DNA of 62,809 bases from Oscillospiraceae bacterium (GTDB lineage: Bacteria > Bacillota > Clostridia > Oscillospirales > CAG-272), in assembly GCA_015064135.1 (NCBI GenBank), contig SVSU01000001.1, forward strand, positions 1 through 62,809, given 5' to 3'. The translations under genes and the position numbers were made by a program. The notes beneath the pieces are model-generated. The model was not told the DNA's origin and did not search any database. It was given only the letters and a program-made list of their open reading frames with translations. Shown here in pieces: positions 2,904 to 29,741 of the stretch (its first letter is position 1; every line of letters begins with the position of its first letter).

Positions 2904-4025
2904 TTAAATCTTCTGGAGCTTCATGCGGTACAGCTTGCAGTCATATGCGGGGACATCGACTTTCAGATAATCCTTGATCAGGCCTGTCTTTTCGCCTGTG
3001 AAGATTTCGTAGCCGCTGAGACCGTAGCCGCTGAAGGAGGGAACGCCAACCTCGGTGAGATCGACAAATGTCATGCCGTCACCCTGATCAGTGAAGTTGA
3101 AGAGCGCAATGAGCAGCTCGTTGTTGGCAAGAACCTTGACGAAGCTCCGACGGTCGCCTCCTCTGATGAAAGCGGCAGTGCGTGCTTCGGGGTCGTTCAG
3201 GATGGAGAGAAGCTCCTTGTTCTTCAGCAGCGCAAGAGTTTCCTCGTCGATGTTGCGGATATCAGCACCGATCATGAGGGGAGACTGATAGAGGCACCAC
3301 AGAGCGAAGTGGGACTTGTACTGAACGGGAGTGCATCCGCCTGCACCAACGTTTCCTTTTCCTCCCATGCCGCAGATCAGCATATCGATGTCGTTGTAGC
3401 AGCCGGGTGCGGAATACGCCAGCTTATCGATCTGGCTTGTGGAAATGTCAATGTAGCTCTGGGGATTGTCGCAGATGTCGCCTGTGGAGCGATACATATG
3501 AGCACCTGTGGAACGGATCCACTTTTCAACCTCGTCGCTGCCCCAGTTGCAGGCGGAGAAGAGGATCTCACGGCCCGTAGCCTTCAGCGCCATGGACATT
3601 CTTCTGTAGAGAGAGGGGCCGTCCACGTGCTTCGGAACATAGCAGAAGTCGTATTTGAGGAAATCCACACCCCAGTCAGCGAAGGTCTGTGCGTCAAGAT
3701 ATTCGTGATCAAAGGAACCGGGGCGGCGTGCACAGGTCATGCAGCCCGCACAGGAGTACATACCGAACTTCAGACCCTTGCTGTGGACATAGTCCGAAAG
3801 AGCCTTCATGCCGGAGGGGAATTTTTCGGGGTCGGGCACCAGTCTGTCGTTTTCGTCTCTTTCGTAAAGGGACCAGCAGTCGTCGATGACCACGTATTCG
3901 TAGCCTGCGTCACGGAGACCCAGATCGACCATGGCATCCGCAATTTCACGGATCACCTGTTCGTTGATCAGGTGACCGAAGGTGTTCCAGGAATTCCAAC
4001 CCATAGGGGGTGTTTGTGCGAGCAT
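2904..4025 (-). CDS. GH27 alpha-galactosidase family protein, paralogue 4 (373 aa)
   Basis: It has the same GH27 motif set. An RBS aaggagat lies upstream of the start. Confidence 0.9.
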   Translation of the reverse strand: MLAQTPPMGWNSWNTFGHLINEQVIREIADAMVDLGLRDAGYEYVVIDDCWSLYERDENDRLVPDPEKFPSGMKALSDYVHSKGLKFGMYSCAGCMTCARRPGSFDHEYLDAQTFADWGVDFLKYDFCYVPKHVDGPSLYRRMSMALKATGREILFSACNWGSDEVEKWIRSTGAHMYRSTGDICDNPQSYIDISTSQIDKLAYSAPGCYNDIDMLICGMGGKGNVGAGGCTPVQYKSHFALWCLYQSPLMIGADIRNIDEETLALLKNKELLSILNDPEARTAAFIRGGDRRSFVKVLANNELLIALFNFTDQGDGMTFVDLTEVGVPSFSGYGLSGYEIFTGEKTGLIKDYLKVDVPAYDCKLYRMKLQKI

Positions 4026-4321: not shown

Positions 4322-5653
4322 TCATACGATTTTTTCGATGAGCAAAGCATCCCTTGCATTGGCGCGCAGAGATATTCTTCCGTCTGTGATCGTTGTTTCG
4401 TATAGAGGTTCTATGCCTCCGGACGTGATTTTTGAAACCTTGGCTCTCGTAAAGGTGCACTCGGTAATCTCCCGAGATCCGTTGAATCCGTTGTCACTGT
4501 AGAAAACATAGATGTCAGGTCTTATGGTCAGTGGAAGAAGGACAGAGTGTGCATCCTTGAGAGTAATTCCGTTTTTCGAGATCGTCTCGTCTGCGGAACG
4601 GCTTATGATTCCGTCGGAAAAGAACGCTGTCTTGCCGGATTCGTCGTTTTCAATGCCCTCGCGTTTGTGGTCGCAAAGATAGAAATACGGGAGCTGGATC
4701 ATGCAGAATTCGCGGAGGAACGGAGCAATCCATGCATCACCTTCCGCACCCCAGAGATGTTCTCCCTGGATGTTGCCGTAAAACGTATATAGAAAAGCAG
4801 GATCGCCCGGCATTCCTCCCGTAAGTTGCTGAGGAGGGTAGGCAAGGTATTCCTCATCACGGACATTGGTGATCCACCATACAGCCGGGATGCGTCCGAT
4901 GATGTCGATGGGGTATACGGAATGTGTTCGGCAGTATTTGTTGTAGTTATCACGTCCGTCGGGACCTTCACGATAGGCTAACTCGGAGGTGATATCCAGA
5001 CCGCGGGATCTTACATAATCAATGATGCTGCTGCGTGCTTTTTGAGCATCGGCAATATCGACCTCCGGTGCGTTGTTGTAGTAGCACTGGAAGTTGTCCA
5101 CATGGATTGTGCCTGTCTGTGCAGCAGGAATTGAAGCGAGGAATCGCTCGAAACGTCGGCGAAACAGTCCACTGTTCCATTCTTCATAGAACGATATTTT
5201 ATAGCATTCCTTGTCATTGTATTCCTCAATGGGATCGGGGGTACCATCAGGCTTTCGTATCAGCGCACCTGCTGAAAGATAATCTGTGAATTGTTCGGAA
5301 TCCGTATAAGCATCGGTGAAATTGACATGGAAGCTGACCGTGGTGTTGAATCGCTTTGATTCCTCCATGAGCCAAACGAGACTGTCGAGTGCGGTCGCAT
5401 CATCCGGGCGCTTTAAGGCTTTGTTGACTTCGAAAAGATCCGGATACCGATTGTCATGCCCGTTGTACTGCCAGCCGACAAGATAGATGATCTTTGGCAC
5501 ACCGAGAGTCAGCGCATCGGTTTTCTTTATAATATCCAGCGCTCTTTCAAAATTGATTTTGACATTTGAACCGCCATCTTTGTCGGGGACGGCGAGGAAC
5601 ATCTTCATCATCATAGTTTTGGTGTAGTCAAAATTGAACCCGTATTCTGTCAT
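4322..5653 (-). CDS. Putative glycoside hydrolase, GH101/GH129-like (endo-alpha-N-acetylgalactosaminidase-type TIM barrel), 443 aa, no signal peptide
   Basis: The segments IYLVGWQYNGHDNRYPD and SFHVNFTDAYTDSE resemble the remembered GH101 catalytic-domain pattern (KGY..GHD..HPDY, GVHINATEAYPE). The family assignment comes from memory only. Confidence 0.5.
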   Translation of the reverse strand: MTEYGFNFDYTKTMMMKMFLAVPDKDGGSNVKINFERALDIIKKTDALTLGVPKIIYLVGWQYNGHDNRYPDLFEVNKALKRPDDATALDSLVWLMEESKRFNTTVSFHVNFTDAYTDSEQFTDYLSAGALIRKPDGTPDPIEEYNDKECYKISFYEEWNSGLFRRRFERFLASIPAAQTGTIHVDNFQCYYNNAPEVDIADAQKARSSIIDYVRSRGLDITSELAYREGPDGRDNYNKYCRTHSVYPIDIIGRIPAVWWITNVRDEEYLAYPPQQLTGGMPGDPAFLYTFYGNIQGEHLWGAEGDAWIAPFLREFCMIQLPYFYLCDHKREGIENDESGKTAFFSDGIISRSADETISKNGITLKDAHSVLLPLTIRPDIYVFYSDNGFNGSREITECTFTRAKVSKITSGGIEPLYETTITDGRISLRANARDALLIEKIV

Positions 5654-5700
5654 GGTGGACTCCTTTTCTTACCGTCAAGGTGGGGGTGTTTTCCGAAAAA

Positions 5701-6843
5701 TTACTTTTTCAGCTGCAGACGGTAGATCTTGCAGTCGTGGGTGGGAACGTTGGTTTCGAAGAAGTTCTTAACCACACCCTTTGTCCGTTCGCCGGAGAAG
5801 ATTTCGTAGCCCTCGAAGCCGTAGCCGCTGGCAACTGTGATACCCAGGTCGTAAAGCTCAACCTTGAATGCAGCTTCATAGGAATCGTGGAAGTTGAAGA
5901 ACGCCAGGATGTATTCGCCATTAGAGAGGTGCTTGAAGAATACATGGCGGTCGATCCACTGAACCTGAGGATACTGCTGTGCCATTTTTCTGGGGGGACG
6001 TGCTTCGGGGTCCTTCAGGATAGAGAGAAGTTCCTTGTTCTTCAGAAGCTCGATGCAGGCGTCATCCATCTTGGAGAGATCGCCGCCGATCATGAGGGGA
6101 GACTGGAACAGGCACCACAGAGCGAAGTGCATTCTGTATTCGTTGTATGTGCATCCGCCTGCACCTACGTTTCCGTTGCCGTTCATGCCGACGATCAGCA
6201 TATCGAGGTCGTTGTAGCAAGCGGGTGCGGAGTATGCGATCTTTTCGATCTGGCTTTCCATGATGTCACGGAAGCTCTTCAGGTTGTCGCAGATATCGCC
6301 CGTGGAGCGATACATATGGGCACCTGTGGAGCGGATCCACTTTTCGCTTTCGTCAGCCCCCCAGTTGCAGGCGGAGAAGAGGATCTCACGTCCCGTAGCC
6401 TTCAGCGCCATGCTCATTCTGTTGTAGAGGATGGGGCCGTTTGCCAGTTTGGGTCTGTCGCAGTAGTCGTACTTCAGGAAGTCAACTTCCCAATCAGCGA
6501 AGGTCTGGGCGTCGATGAATTCGTAGTCGAAGGAACCGGGATAGCCGTCACAGGTAGTTGTACCTGCGCAGGCGTACATACCGAACTTCAGACCCTTTGA
6601 GTGGATGTAGTCGGCAAGAGCCTTCATGCCGGAGGGGAATTTTTCGGGGTCGGGGATGATGCGTCCGTCAGCACCTCTCTGCATGAGGGACCAGCAGTCG
6701 TCGATTACGACATATTCGTATCCCGCGTCCTTCAGACCGAGATTAACGATGGCATCGGCGGTGTCACGAACAACCTGTTCGTTGATGTTTCTGCCGAATG
6801 TGTTCCAAGAGTTCCATCCCATGGGGGGAGTTTGAGCCAGCAT
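5701..6843 (-). CDS. GH27 alpha-galactosidase family protein, paralogue 5 (380 aa), first gene of the operon
   Basis: It has the GH27 motif set. An RBS aaaggagat and a sigma-A-like promoter lie upstream. Confidence 0.9.
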   Translation of the reverse strand: MLAQTPPMGWNSWNTFGRNINEQVVRDTADAIVNLGLKDAGYEYVVIDDCWSLMQRGADGRIIPDPEKFPSGMKALADYIHSKGLKFGMYACAGTTTCDGYPGSFDYEFIDAQTFADWEVDFLKYDYCDRPKLANGPILYNRMSMALKATGREILFSACNWGADESEKWIRSTGAHMYRSTGDICDNLKSFRDIMESQIEKIAYSAPACYNDLDMLIVGMNGNGNVGAGGCTYNEYRMHFALWCLFQSPLMIGGDLSKMDDACIELLKNKELLSILKDPEARPPRKMAQQYPQVQWIDRHVFFKHLSNGEYILAFFNFHDSYEAAFKVELYDLGITVASGYGFEGYEIFSGERTKGVVKNFFETNVPTHDCKIYRLQLKK

Positions 6844-26998: not shown

Positions 26999-27469
26999 AT
27001 GGTAAAAACAAACGCACTCCGTCTCCTTGAGGTGGCAGGGATCACAACGGAGGTTACGGAATACACCGTGGACGAGAGCGATCTCTCGGGAGTCCATGTG
27101 GCGGAGGTGATCGGTGCCGACCCCGACACGGTATTCAAAACCTTGGTATGCCGCGGCGACAAAAACGGAATCAACGTGTTCGTTATTCCCGTGGCGGCGG
27201 AGCTGGACTTGAAGAAATGTGCCGCCGTGTCGAAAAACAAAAAGGTGGAAATGATCGGCGTGAAGGAGATCCTCGGCGTAACGGGGTATATCCGCGGCGG
27301 CTGCTCCCCCGTGGGGATGAAGAAGAAGTACCCCACCTACATGGACGAGACCGCAGTTCTCTTCGACGGAATTTATGTCAGCGCAGGGGTGAGAGGGATG
27401 CAGATGAAGGTAAACCCGGAGGAGCTGGCGGCATATGTGGGCGCGGAATTCTGTGACCTGACCATGTGA
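26999..27469 (+). CDS. ybaK: Cys-tRNA(Pro)/Cys-tRNA(Cys) deacylase YbaK
   Basis: The 156-aa ORF has a YbaK/EbsC-like sequence (FKTLVCRGDKNG, GYIRGGCSPVGMKKK). Confidence 0.85.
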   Translation: MVKTNALRLLEVAGITTEVTEYTVDESDLSGVHVAEVIGADPDTVFKTLVCRGDKNGINVFVIPVAAELDLKKCAAVSKNKKVEMIGVKEILGVTGYIRGGCSPVGMKKKYPTYMDETAVLFDGIYVSAGVRGMQMKVNPEELAAYVGAEFCDLTM

Positions 27470-27542
27470 GGCGGAAGGGGAACCCATGCATAATCCACTC
27501 GGCTTTAAGTGGGCTTCATGTTGAACAATATGGTGAATAGTA

Positions 27543-28112
27543 ATGGAAAACGAATTGCCGAAAAGAAAACCGACAAGGTTAAAGAATTTTGATTACAGTT
27601 CATCGGGAGCATATTTTTTGACGATATGTACGGAAAACAGGCGTCAGATATTGTCACGTGTTCTTGTAGGGGGCGACGTCCCCGACGCCCCGAAGCACTC
27701 TCAATTGAACGGTGTGCAGGTGTGTTTGTCGCAATATGGAATAATTGCCGATAAATACATAAATAGTATAAATGAATTCTATGAGTGGCTTTGTGTGGAC
27801 AGTTATGTGATTATGCCAAATCATATTCATATATTGCTGTTTGTGAAATCAGAGGATGACTTGTCGGAGCCATGCGGTAACGGGGCGTCGAGGACGTCGC
27901 CCCCTACGGTGAAGCAGCATTCGGCAGTTTCGCGGTTTGTTTCAACATTCAAACGCTTTTGCAACAAGGAATACGGCTGTAATATATGGCAAAGAAGTTT
28001 TTTTGACCATATTATTTGTGGCCGTGAAAATTACAGAAAGCATTTGCGGTATATATTTGACAATCCGATGCGATGGTTTTTTGATGAACTGTATGAAGAA
28101 TGTTCTGAATAA
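27543..28112 (+). CDS. REP-associated tyrosine transposase (RAYT) / IS200-like Y1 HUH transposase
   Basis: It has an HUH motif (MPNHIHILL) and a C-terminal Tyr motif (YRKHLRYIFDNP). The gene and its flanks are markedly AT-richer than the neighbouring sequence. No second IS ORF is present. Confidence 0.8.
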   Translation: MENELPKRKPTRLKNFDYSSSGAYFLTICTENRRQILSRVLVGGDVPDAPKHSQLNGVQVCLSQYGIIADKYINSINEFYEWLCVDSYVIMPNHIHILLFVKSEDDLSEPCGNGASRTSPPTVKQHSAVSRFVSTFKRFCNKEYGCNIWQRSFFDHIICGRENYRKHLRYIFDNPMRWFFDELYEECSE

Positions 28113-28310
28113 AAAAATTTACAGTTGGATTTTTTGCGAGTATCCAATCGGCACCTCTGCAATAAAATCGAAGTCCTTCCGGGCTTCTTTTTTATTCCCG
28201 AAAAATTTTCGACAAAAAACAAAAAAATGCGCAACTTTTCTTGTTTCTTTGCCGTCAGTATGATATAATATAAAAGATATACCAAAGATAGAAATCAAGG
28301 TTGATGTATA

Positions 28311-29741
28311 ATGAAGGCAAAAAAGATTTTCGTGTGCTCCGAATGCGATTATCAGAGCGCTAAATGGCTTGGCAGATGCCCCGAATGCGGTGCATGGAAC
28401 ACCTTTTCGGAGGAAACCTATGCCGCACCGTCGCCGAAGCCTCTCTCGGGAAGAACAGCGGCGGCGGAGGCAAAACGACAGGTGTTTTCCGAACGTGAAC
28501 GGGATGAAGCGGTGAAATTCCGCGACTTTTCGCCTCCTGAATATATGCGCATCTCTACCAACATCGGAGAGCTTGACAGAGTGCTGGGCGGCGGACTTGT
28601 GACAGGTTCTGCCGTTCTCCTCTCGGGTGAGCCGGGTATCGGCAAATCCACACTTCTCATGCAGCTTTGCGGCATCCTCGGGGAGAGGGAGACCATTCTC
28701 TATGTCTCGGGCGAGGAATCGAAGGGACAGCTGAAGATGCGCGCGGACAGGCTGGGTGCGGATGCGGAGAATCTTTATGTGCTTACCGCCACCTGCCTCA
28801 GTCATATCGTGGAGGAATACAACAAGGTCAAGCCCGATATCGTGATCATCGATTCCATCCAGACTATGTACAGCGAAAACTGCCCTTCAACTCAGGGAAG
28901 CGTTTCCCAGGTAAGGGAGTGCTCCCAGGCTATCATCGAGCTTGCAAAATATGACAGCGCATCGGTGATTATCGTGGGTCATGTGAATAAAGAAGGCGGC
29001 ATTGCAGGCCCGAAGGTGCTTGAGCATATGGTGGATGCGGTGCTGTATTTTGAGGGAGACAGACGGCAGTCCCACAGGATCGTGCGTGCCATCAAGAACC
29101 GATACGGCAGCACCAACGAGATCGGTGTGTTTGAAATGACGGAGGACGGACTTCGCGAGGTGCCGAATCCCTCCGCTATGCTCCTTGAGGGCAGACCTGT
29201 CGGTGTCAGCGGAAGCTGTGCGGTGTGCACCATGGAGGGAAGCCGCCCCATTATCGCGGAGATACAGGCGCTTGTCACACCTACTTCGTTCCCCTCACCC
29301 AGACGGACGGCAAACGGTGTTGAATATAACCGTATGTATATGCTCCTTGCCGTGCTTGAAAAAAGGCTGGGGCTGAAGTTTTCCGCCTGCGATGTGTATA
29401 TGAACGTGATCGGCGGTCTGAGGCTTGACGATACTGCCGCAGATGCCGCCGCCTGCCTTGCGCTGATCTCCTCCCTGCGCGATGTCCCCGTTCCTCCCGA
29501 TGTGATCGCGTTCGGTGAACTCGGGCTTTCGGGAGAATTCCGTTCGGTTTCCAATATCGAACAGCGCGTCAACGAGGCGCATCGTCTGGGCTTCACAAAG
29601 ATCGCATTGCCCGGGCGCTCCCTCGCCGCCGTGAAAAATGCGGAGCTGCTCGCGGAGGATGGAACAGAGTTTATCCCTCTCGGCGGAATTTACGATGCCC
29701 TGCGGCTTCTTGCCATGGGCGAACAAAAAAACGAGCAGTAG
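28311..29741 (+). CDS. radA: DNA repair protein RadA/Sms
   Basis: It has an N-terminal zinc finger (CSECDYQSAKWLGRCPECGAW), Walker A (GEPGIGKST), a KNRYG motif and a Lon-like C-terminus. Confidence 0.95.
   Translation: MKAKKIFVCSECDYQSAKWLGRCPECGAWNTFSEETYAAPSPKPLSGRTAAAEAKRQVFSERERDEAVKFRDFSPPEYMRISTNIGELDRVLGGGLVTGSAVLLSGEPGIGKSTLLMQLCGILGERETILYVSGEESKGQLKMRADRLGADAENLYVLTATCLSHIVEEYNKVKPDIVIIDSIQTMYSENCPSTQGSVSQVRECSQAIIELAKYDSASVIIVGHVNKEGGIAGPKVLEHMVDAVLYFEGDRRQSHRIVRAIKNRYGSTNEIGVFEMTEDGLREVPNPSAMLLEGRPVGVSGSCAVCTMEGSRPIIAEIQALVTPTSFPSPRRTANGVEYNRMYMLLAVLEKRLGLKFSACDVYMNVIGGLRLDDTAADAAACLALISSLRDVPVPPDVIAFGELGLSGEFRSVSNIEQRVNEAHRLGFTKIALPGRSLAAVKNAELLAEDGTEFIPLGGIYDALRLLAMGEQKNEQ

Follow-up and report, generated by a model that had tools for sequence, protein, structure and literature searches.

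A RAYT-like gene in a stretch of 62,809 nucleotides from an Oscillospiraceae bacterium (hereafter the window, i.e. the whole 62.8-kb stretch) was found to carry two GTAG-tagged hairpins inside its own reading frame, in inverted orientation and on either side of the segment encoding its HUH motif. The element formed by each of these hairpins, or arms, also makes up a dispersed and mainly intergenic REP family in sister genomes. The explanation that we favor, with a probability of roughly 55%, is that the gene is a REPtron with both of its bordering REPs inside the ORF, by which enzyme and substrate are linked; that this is their function is inferred.

The ORF (27543..28112, plus strand) translates into 189 aa. 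Its HUH motif, H94-I95-H96 (27822..27830, plus strand), and the candidate catalytic tyrosine Y170, situated in RYIFDNP (28050..28052, plus strand), are invariant in an alignment of homologues (A1), as are N174 and P175. The best family-model matches of the protein were Pfam PF01797 Y1_Tnp, at 19.6 bits with a cut-off of 23, and NCBIfam NF047646 REP_Tyr_transpos, at 62.6 bits with a curated cut-off of 80. Both are below threshold, and the protein is a member of a divergent clade. An AlphaFold model of the protein, built with 30 homologues as input (mean pLDDT 72.7), had 4er8_A, i.e. E. coli TnpA_REP bound to a REP hairpin, as its top PDB match (E 2.4e-6), followed by the ISDra2, IS608 and IS200 transposases. 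The family profile also matched 4er8 (E 4.6e-9), in an alignment spanning the HUH strand and the YIxxNP tyrosine helix, where the RYIFDNP segment of Y170 is aligned with YIYINP. Since 4er8 is the top match of both the structural model and the family profile, we conclude that the gene product is a divergent RAYT-like Y1 HUH nuclease. It meets the RAYT criterion of a Y1 HUH fold with an HUH motif and a tyrosine in the C-terminal helix, at an identity to 4er8 of only about 20%. A homology search gave 2488 close homologues, and the number of clusters at 50% identity matching the family was 16,406 at E<=1e-3 and 4,760 at E<=1e-10.

The gene is situated in a low-GC island (27470..28310) between ybaK-like and radA-like genes, which encode a YbaK-type tRNA_edit protein and a RadA-like protein, respectively. 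GC is 0.33-0.46 over positions 27450-28350, comprising the gene and its downstream spacer, versus 0.50-0.58 in the flanks, and a terminator-like hairpin followed by a T run is found 3' of the ORF (28170..28197, plus strand). No partner ORF for the HUH gene was identified in the window, nor any GTAG hairpins flanking the ORF, both hairpins being internal to it. The locus thus does not meet the REPtron criterion (REPs flanking the gene), and with no flanking hairpins and one copy in the window it does not meet the IS200/IS605 criterion (subterminal hairpins outside the ORF and on one strand, multicopy) either. Gene neighborhoods of RAYT-like genes vary between genomes, and conserved synteny was rejected as the neighbors differ among the loci L001, L002 and the window. 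Contigs encoding the exact YbaK protein of the window, searched for an empty site or strain variants, gave only the same arrangement (L203). Among the 21 loci having at least 3 kb of flanks, the window included, RAYT-like genes with masked arms had a GC content below that of their flanks in 21 out of 21 cases (mean -0.13), and nonetheless the GC content of these genes climbs with that of the host.

The two arms form a 27-nt inverted repeat in which 26 out of 27 positions (96%) are complementary and whose halves are 188 nt apart. Arm 1 (27666..27692, plus strand) consists of GTAG, then GGGGCG, A, CG, the loop TCCC, CG, A and CGCCCC, and then G, and it encodes VGGDVPDAP (residues 42-50) in loop 1. 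Arm 2 (27881..27907) is the same element on the minus strand (GTAGGGGGCGACGTCCTCGACGCCCCG) and encodes GASRTSPPT (residues 114-122) in loop 2. According to the secondary structure of the AlphaFold model, the segment between them (27693..27880, plus strand) encodes helix 64-79 and strands 83-101, the latter bearing the HUH motif. Each arm folds alone as ....((((((.((....)).)))))), at -12.7 and -13.3 kcal/mol, i.e. into a 6-bp stem, an A.A mismatch, 2 bp and a 4-nt loop within the 22 nt after GTAG, and each meets the REP criterion of a GC-rich imperfect palindrome of 20-40 nt with a GTAG tag at one end. When up to three mismatches were allowed, the 27-mer was found at just two sites in the 62.8-kb window, with 0 expected from 100 shuffles. 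Further copies of the 27-mer or of a 12-mer core were not found in the window beyond the two arms, and neither was an excess of GTAG-plus-hairpin sites, control tetranucleotides being similarly frequent. The first-pass annotation had already pointed out most of this outline, namely an ORF at 27543-28112 with HUH (HIH) and Tyr motifs, without a partner ORF or obvious IS ends, in an AT-rich stretch between ybaK and radA, and within it two 27-mers that are reverse complements with one mismatch, encode VGGDVPDAP and GASRTSPPT and can each fold locally; all of these points were borne out. The lone mismatch between the arms (27682 versus 27891) coincides with a recurrent T/C dimorphism in the hairpin loop, at REP position 17. 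Arm 1 has C and arm 2 has T in eight genes, while the reverse occurs in three, and the extragenic REP copies among the matches listed have 114 T and 27 C at this position.

By scanning genomes, one per species, with GTAGGGNNCGACGTCCNCGACGNNCC, we obtained matches in at least 120 stretches, a scope from which the copy number per genome cannot be derived. Among the matches listed, almost all were from MAGs of gut and rumen Clostridia, i.e. Oscillospiraceae, Acutalibacteraceae, Ruminococcus and unclassified Eubacteriales; only two were from outside the Clostridia, neither of which pairs, and these serve as an internal control. The same listed matches contain at least 166 REP copies, 20 of them in RAYT-homologous DNA at E<=1e-5, with unrelated, AT-rich flanks around the copies outside such DNA. 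In a recount at E<=1e-3, also restricted to the matches listed, 16 copies were RAYT-associated and 146 were not, and out of the latter 106 (73%) were located outside or at the edge of long ORFs (at least 120 aa), versus 20% of random positions. Among the matches listed, some copies are singlets and others form inverted doublets, of which both arrangements were seen. With at least 142-146 non-RAYT copies, the REP criterion of many dispersed, mostly extragenic copies with inverted doublets is met in the related genomes. Four positions of the REP are free and make up two stem pairs, for which eight complementary combinations were seen among the matches listed; both pairs are Watson-Crick in 96% of the copies, versus 34% upon permutation (maximum 43% in 2000 permutations). 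The REP is flanked by a pyrimidine pair ahead of GTAG and by a G after the hairpin. Several MAGs have at least four copies, on different contigs, and at least three MAGs (JAGAVH, JAFUJB and SVUJ) have the gene as well as extragenic copies of its REP. No extragenic cognate REP was found in the window (62.8 kb), nor in L001, L002, L166 and L194 (~20 kb each). The REP family is accordingly established for the sister genomes, and a functioning RAYT-REP system has not been shown for the genome of the window itself. In the locus L032 (5173-5524), two REPs belonging to this family are found in +/- arrangement just upstream of a radA homologue that is 59% identical to the one in the window, without a RAYT gene between them; the same spacer contains further palindromic repeats.

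There is a match between the internal arms and the extragenic REPs close to the gene that carries them. When loci were picked on the basis of the protein only, 47 out of 105 extragenic GTAG hairpins were at most three mismatches from the arms inside the RAYT gene of the same locus, and the median distance between extragenic REPs and arms was 7 within the own locus versus 11.7 for unrelated loci, again with loci chosen by protein alone. Examples of such matching are L157, L176, L183 and L145-149, and in L176 two REP subtypes are paired in extragenic REPINs, both of which also make up the pair inside the gene. The possibility that extragenic REPINs were recently copied from the coding unit was rejected after a profile search and a sensitive blastn search, which detected homology to the spacer only in L024. 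This locus has, at 3366-3558, an orphan, frame-shifted fragment consisting of REP, HUH-coding spacer and REP without any N- or C-terminal RAYT sequence, and the RAYT homology stops no more than about 15 nt away from where the arms end on the outside. As this was the sole orphan copy found, there is little sign of the internal unit moving as a whole. An intergenic inverted doublet of another REP, GTAGGGGCGGATTCCATATCCGCCCG, occurs at 7130-7203 in L001 and is identical to the arms of the RAYT gene in L160, which suggests that one genome can host several RAYT/REP pairs.

To extend the family, 80 further relatives (30-60% identity) were collected by means of peptide patterns that exclude the REP-encoded peptides. 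A pair of arms, defined as inverted GTAG-tagged hairpins with at least 20 out of 26 matching positions, was found inside the ORF in 69 out of 96 RAYT-like regions (30-100% identity). The 58 distinct arm pairs among these include many unrelated stem and loop sequences. In relatives down to about 35% identity, one arm follows the first strand and the other the HUH strand, both in loops, while some relatives at 30-34% identity have both arms in the second loop, in-frame and with intact ORFs. In the distant relatives L190 and L191 the loops contain no inserts, and REPs are instead located on the flanks of the ORF, which is the arrangement of a classical REPtron; through these two the family is continuous with classical REPtrons.

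The arms are held constant at the nucleotide level and change together with their local hairpin. Both peptides are nearly invariant in close homologues, where the consensus VGGDVLDAP corresponds to the exact reverse complement of GASRTSPPT, and variants co-change, e.g. VGVDVLDDP with GSSRTSTPT and VGRDV with TSRPT. When 20 genes were aligned by codon, the frequency of the majority base at third positions was 0.93 within the arms versus 0.57 elsewhere (p = 2e-10). Where the arms differ within a gene, ~46 of ~51 stem differences still pair inside their own arm (tally of per-locus rows), and because these differences mostly pair locally, it is the local hairpin and not the arm-to-arm pairing that constitutes the conserved unit.

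The peptides themselves are passengers, i.e. dispensable inserts, because they lie in low-confidence loops of the AlphaFold model (residues 47-58 and 108-121), because GASRTSPPT has no counterpart in 4er8, being a nine-residue insertion between G69 and D70 just before the DNA-binding helix, and because the peptide signature is missing from both loops in a fair number of relatives. The signature was present in both loops in 64, in one loop in 47 and in neither loop in 31 out of 142 usable cluster representatives, and representatives without it in either loop tend to be shorter. The count in a shuffled control was 1. In some lineages arm 2 is read in another frame (L181). The insert around GASRTSPPT (residues 113-123, nt 27879-27911) directly precedes the helix that contacts REP DNA in 4ER8 (K82 region).

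The central proposal of the first-pass annotation, that a RAYT-like gene embeds REP-like hairpins in its own coding sequence, is supported by the dispersed REP family, the synonymous-site conservation and the hairpin covariation. It suggested a search for the 27-mer, and many copies of the motif, taken as a 26-mer, turned up in related genomes, with no extragenic copy in the 62.8 kb of the window; the two segments, whose place in the structure it wished to see predicted, fell in low-confidence loops. As to its question of whether both are insertions, the second segment is one relative to 4er8, and the signature is absent from both loops in about one-fifth of the relatives. The proposal would have failed if the motif had no further copies and if homologues showed both segments to be ordinary conserved protein sequence. 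Motif copies do exist elsewhere, and the segments are not ordinary conserved protein sequence, because of their nucleotide-level conservation, the hairpin covariation, the insertion of the second relative to 4er8 and the absence of the signature from both loops in some relatives. These findings speak against passive insertions undergoing decay, without revealing what role the hairpins have.

A role may be lacking altogether if the arms are selfish REP insertions that are merely tolerated. In that case REPs would insert into or close to the gene of the enzyme by which they are moved, persist in no more than two permissive loops, and be renewed from the extragenic population through gene conversion or re-insertion. 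REPs within ordinary genes have been documented, and are thought to occupy loops (PMC3733652), which agrees with the low confidence of the loops that hold the peptides here and with the 31 out of 142 relatives that lack the signature in both. Tandem partial copies, as a DNA-level process predicts, are found inside genes (A1, L072 and L181) as well as outside (L025), and the positions of the REPs vary by clade, from one arm per loop to both in loop 2 or outside the ORF. However, despite many changes of the REP sequence, relatives with as little as about 35% identity still have the pair in the same loops, in frame and with unchanged orientation, and the synonymous sites of the arms are almost frozen. 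Moreover, the perfect arms without a nearby extragenic copy in the window, L001 and L002 are hard to square with refreshment from outside. Due to this poor fit we regard tolerated insertions refreshed by gene conversion as rather doubtful, but they cannot be excluded, since re-insertion or gene conversion from extragenic REPs would yield the same conservation without any benefit to the gene, which also weighs against our favored explanation. The evidence does not decide between self-recognition or autoregulation on the one hand and tolerated insertions on the other.

Less credible is a role at the RNA level, in which the arms would pair in the mRNA as a 27-bp stem, or fold as two stable hairpins, and thereby limit translation or direct RNase cleavage, so that the level of a potentially harmful nuclease would be kept low. 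The predicted minimum-free-energy fold of 27650-27925 does pair the arms (-113.1 kcal/mol, z-score -6.4 versus shuffles), and strong down-regulation by other means is known for TnpA_REP (PMC3479197). On the other hand, arms that differ from each other keep their local hairpins and break the arm-to-arm pairing (L195, L181, L168, L176 and L135), the same element is abundant as intergenic singlets, and distant relatives have their REPs outside the ORF. No known RNA family in Rfam was matched either, apart from a weak match to Atu_C8 located 3' of the gene, which we attribute to chance. As a secondary effect, an RNA-level role is compatible with a REPtron with internal REPs.

We rejected an invertible DNA switch, for which the 27-bp repeats would be recombination sites and a flip of the 188 bp between them would turn the gene off. 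Inverted repeats do bracket a short segment with the catalytic motif, but the inverted state would truncate the ORF (the minus-strand reading ends in a stop), no recombinase gene adjoins the repeat, and in none of the RAYT-like regions examined was the middle segment on the opposite strand. Finally, an origin of the repeat by chance, or as a side product of two peptide motifs under conservation, for which the near invariance of both peptides in close homologues could speak, is refuted by the 0 matches expected in shuffles, the conserved synonymous sites, the different frame of arm 2 in some relatives (L181) and the at least 142 copies outside any such gene.

For a REPtron with internal REPs, we envisage the following. 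The REP, composed of a pyrimidine pair, GTAG, a 6-bp GC stem, an A.A mismatch, 2 bp, a 4-nt loop and G, would be recognized by the RAYT-type enzyme, and is written twice in the reading frame, in opposite orientations, in two flexible surface loops on either side of the HUH strand. In single-stranded DNA, each strand would then display one GTAG hairpin. The product of the gene is inferred to bind or process its internal hairpins, there being no biochemical or expression data for any member of the family, and this would keep the internal copies matched to the active REP population; according to this proposal the arms would be kept intact because they are the presumed substrate of the enzyme. With enzyme and substrate inherited as one unit, the gene would always carry the seed of its own substrate. 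Equivalently, it could be viewed as a REPIN whose spacer encodes the catalytic core. Binding and cleavage by the protein of the window are inferred by analogy to E. coli TnpA_REP, which acts on single-stranded DNA, where REP hairpins with a GTAG tag are bound and cleaved by it in a strand-specific manner, and whose groups co-evolve with their REPs (PMC3479197, PMC8266576). A side effect of the hairpins on the expression of the gene itself is likely. Weighing against a REPtron with internal REPs are, in addition to the re-insertion argument above, the lack of an extragenic cognate REP in the window, L001, L002, L166 and L194, the scores of the protein under the curated cut-offs of the RAYT and Y1 transposase models, and the single orphan copy of REP, spacer and REP (L024).

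A bolder extension, which we put forward only tentatively and consider possible rather than probable, is that the ORF is itself a master REPIN, i.e. that enzyme and working substrate template form one self-encoding unit. If so, genomic REP populations would be seeded from the in-gene pair, and re-seeded from it after loss or horizontal transfer, and the REP sequence would be doubly constrained, as a recognition hairpin and as an in-frame translated loop. This would account for the occurrence of perfect arms in solitary genes where the genome is poor in REPs, as is that of the window, and for the orphan REP-HUH-REP fragment in L024, and the REP specificity of each such gene would be readable from its own sequence.

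When compared to known systems, the family shares with the E. coli REPtron (TnpA_REP, 4ER8) the fold, including the HUH motif and the catalytic Tyr, an imperfect palindrome with a GTAG tag and a mismatch inside as the cognate element, inverted REPs around the catalytic gene, and a solitary gene without a TnpB partner. The REPs of the E. coli REPtron are situated in the flanking DNA, whereas both are in-frame and translated into two loops in the window gene, and the hosts are Proteobacteria in the former case and gut Clostridia in the latter. The RAYT-REPIN system of Pseudomonas (Bertels and Rainey) likewise combines an inverted two-REP unit and a RAYT with a matching dispersed population, and compensatory evolution maintains the hairpins in both. 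However, Pseudomonas REPINs have a short, non-coding spacer and flank the RAYT, while the internal pair described here has a spacer of 120-190 nt encoding the HUH core, a long unit that was seen as an orphan only once (L024). The IS200/IS605 elements (IS608 and ISDra2) share the Y1 transposase fold, hairpins that bracket the catalytic gene and recognition of single-stranded DNA hairpins, if the inferred binding is counted for the window family. Their ends lie outside the ORF and on one strand, and the element is multicopy, whereas the window gene has its hairpins inside and in inverted orientation, and we found no flanking ends in the window and no multicopy gene there. For REPs within genes, the only descriptions are of sporadic insertions in other genes, in presumed permissive loops (PMC3733652). 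Those known from housekeeping genes (Di Nocera et al. 2013, PMC3733652) are also GTAG REPs that are translated, but they are sporadic and found in unrelated genes, while the pair in the RAYT family is conserved at fixed positions across a very large family, and in a gene of the kind expected to recognize the REP. Known REPtrons and REPINs have their REPs outside the RAYT gene, and we found no description of REPs inside a RAYT ORF in the RAYT/REP papers searched, subscription-only literature not being covered.

The field has yet to explain how REPs spread and why RAYT genes persist as single copies, and in the family described here enzyme and substrate share one reading frame. Thousands of related genes carry signs of the same internal-hairpin layout, and the cognate REP of thousands of uncultured RAYT-like genes could be read directly from the gene without a genome census. 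RAYT/REP systems would also extend to gut and rumen Clostridia, a group that is not mentioned in the accessible REP surveys. For a selfish or domesticated pair of enzyme and repeat, the layout suggests a way to escape separation by recombination or transfer. Even if the arms are passive, the family would still illustrate with unusual clarity that selection at the nucleotide level, or concerted evolution, can override selection on the protein within an ORF.

Some loci display further variation in their REPs. L072 has two RAYT paralogues within 8 kb (490-1047 on the plus strand and 5324-5878 on the minus strand), each with its own internal REP variant, of the GGGGGCGACG type and the GGGACCGGCG type. 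Partial copies of the REP, repeated in tandem and derived from its 3' half, are present in an intergenic position (L025, 5687 onward) and in-frame inside RAYT loops, the latter in L072 (607 and 664), L181 (4202-4825) and the homologues P0021, P0057, P0087 and P0093. At the peptide level these repeats appear as e.g. DVLDAP two to four times, or GNRPEN five times in L181. Hairpin-driven slippage or RAYT activity may be behind this expansion. The RAYT-like protein of L181 (4202-4825) may, judging from its motif, be catalytically inactive, as it has HIY in place of the HUH motif, yet both REPs are retained in its loop 2.
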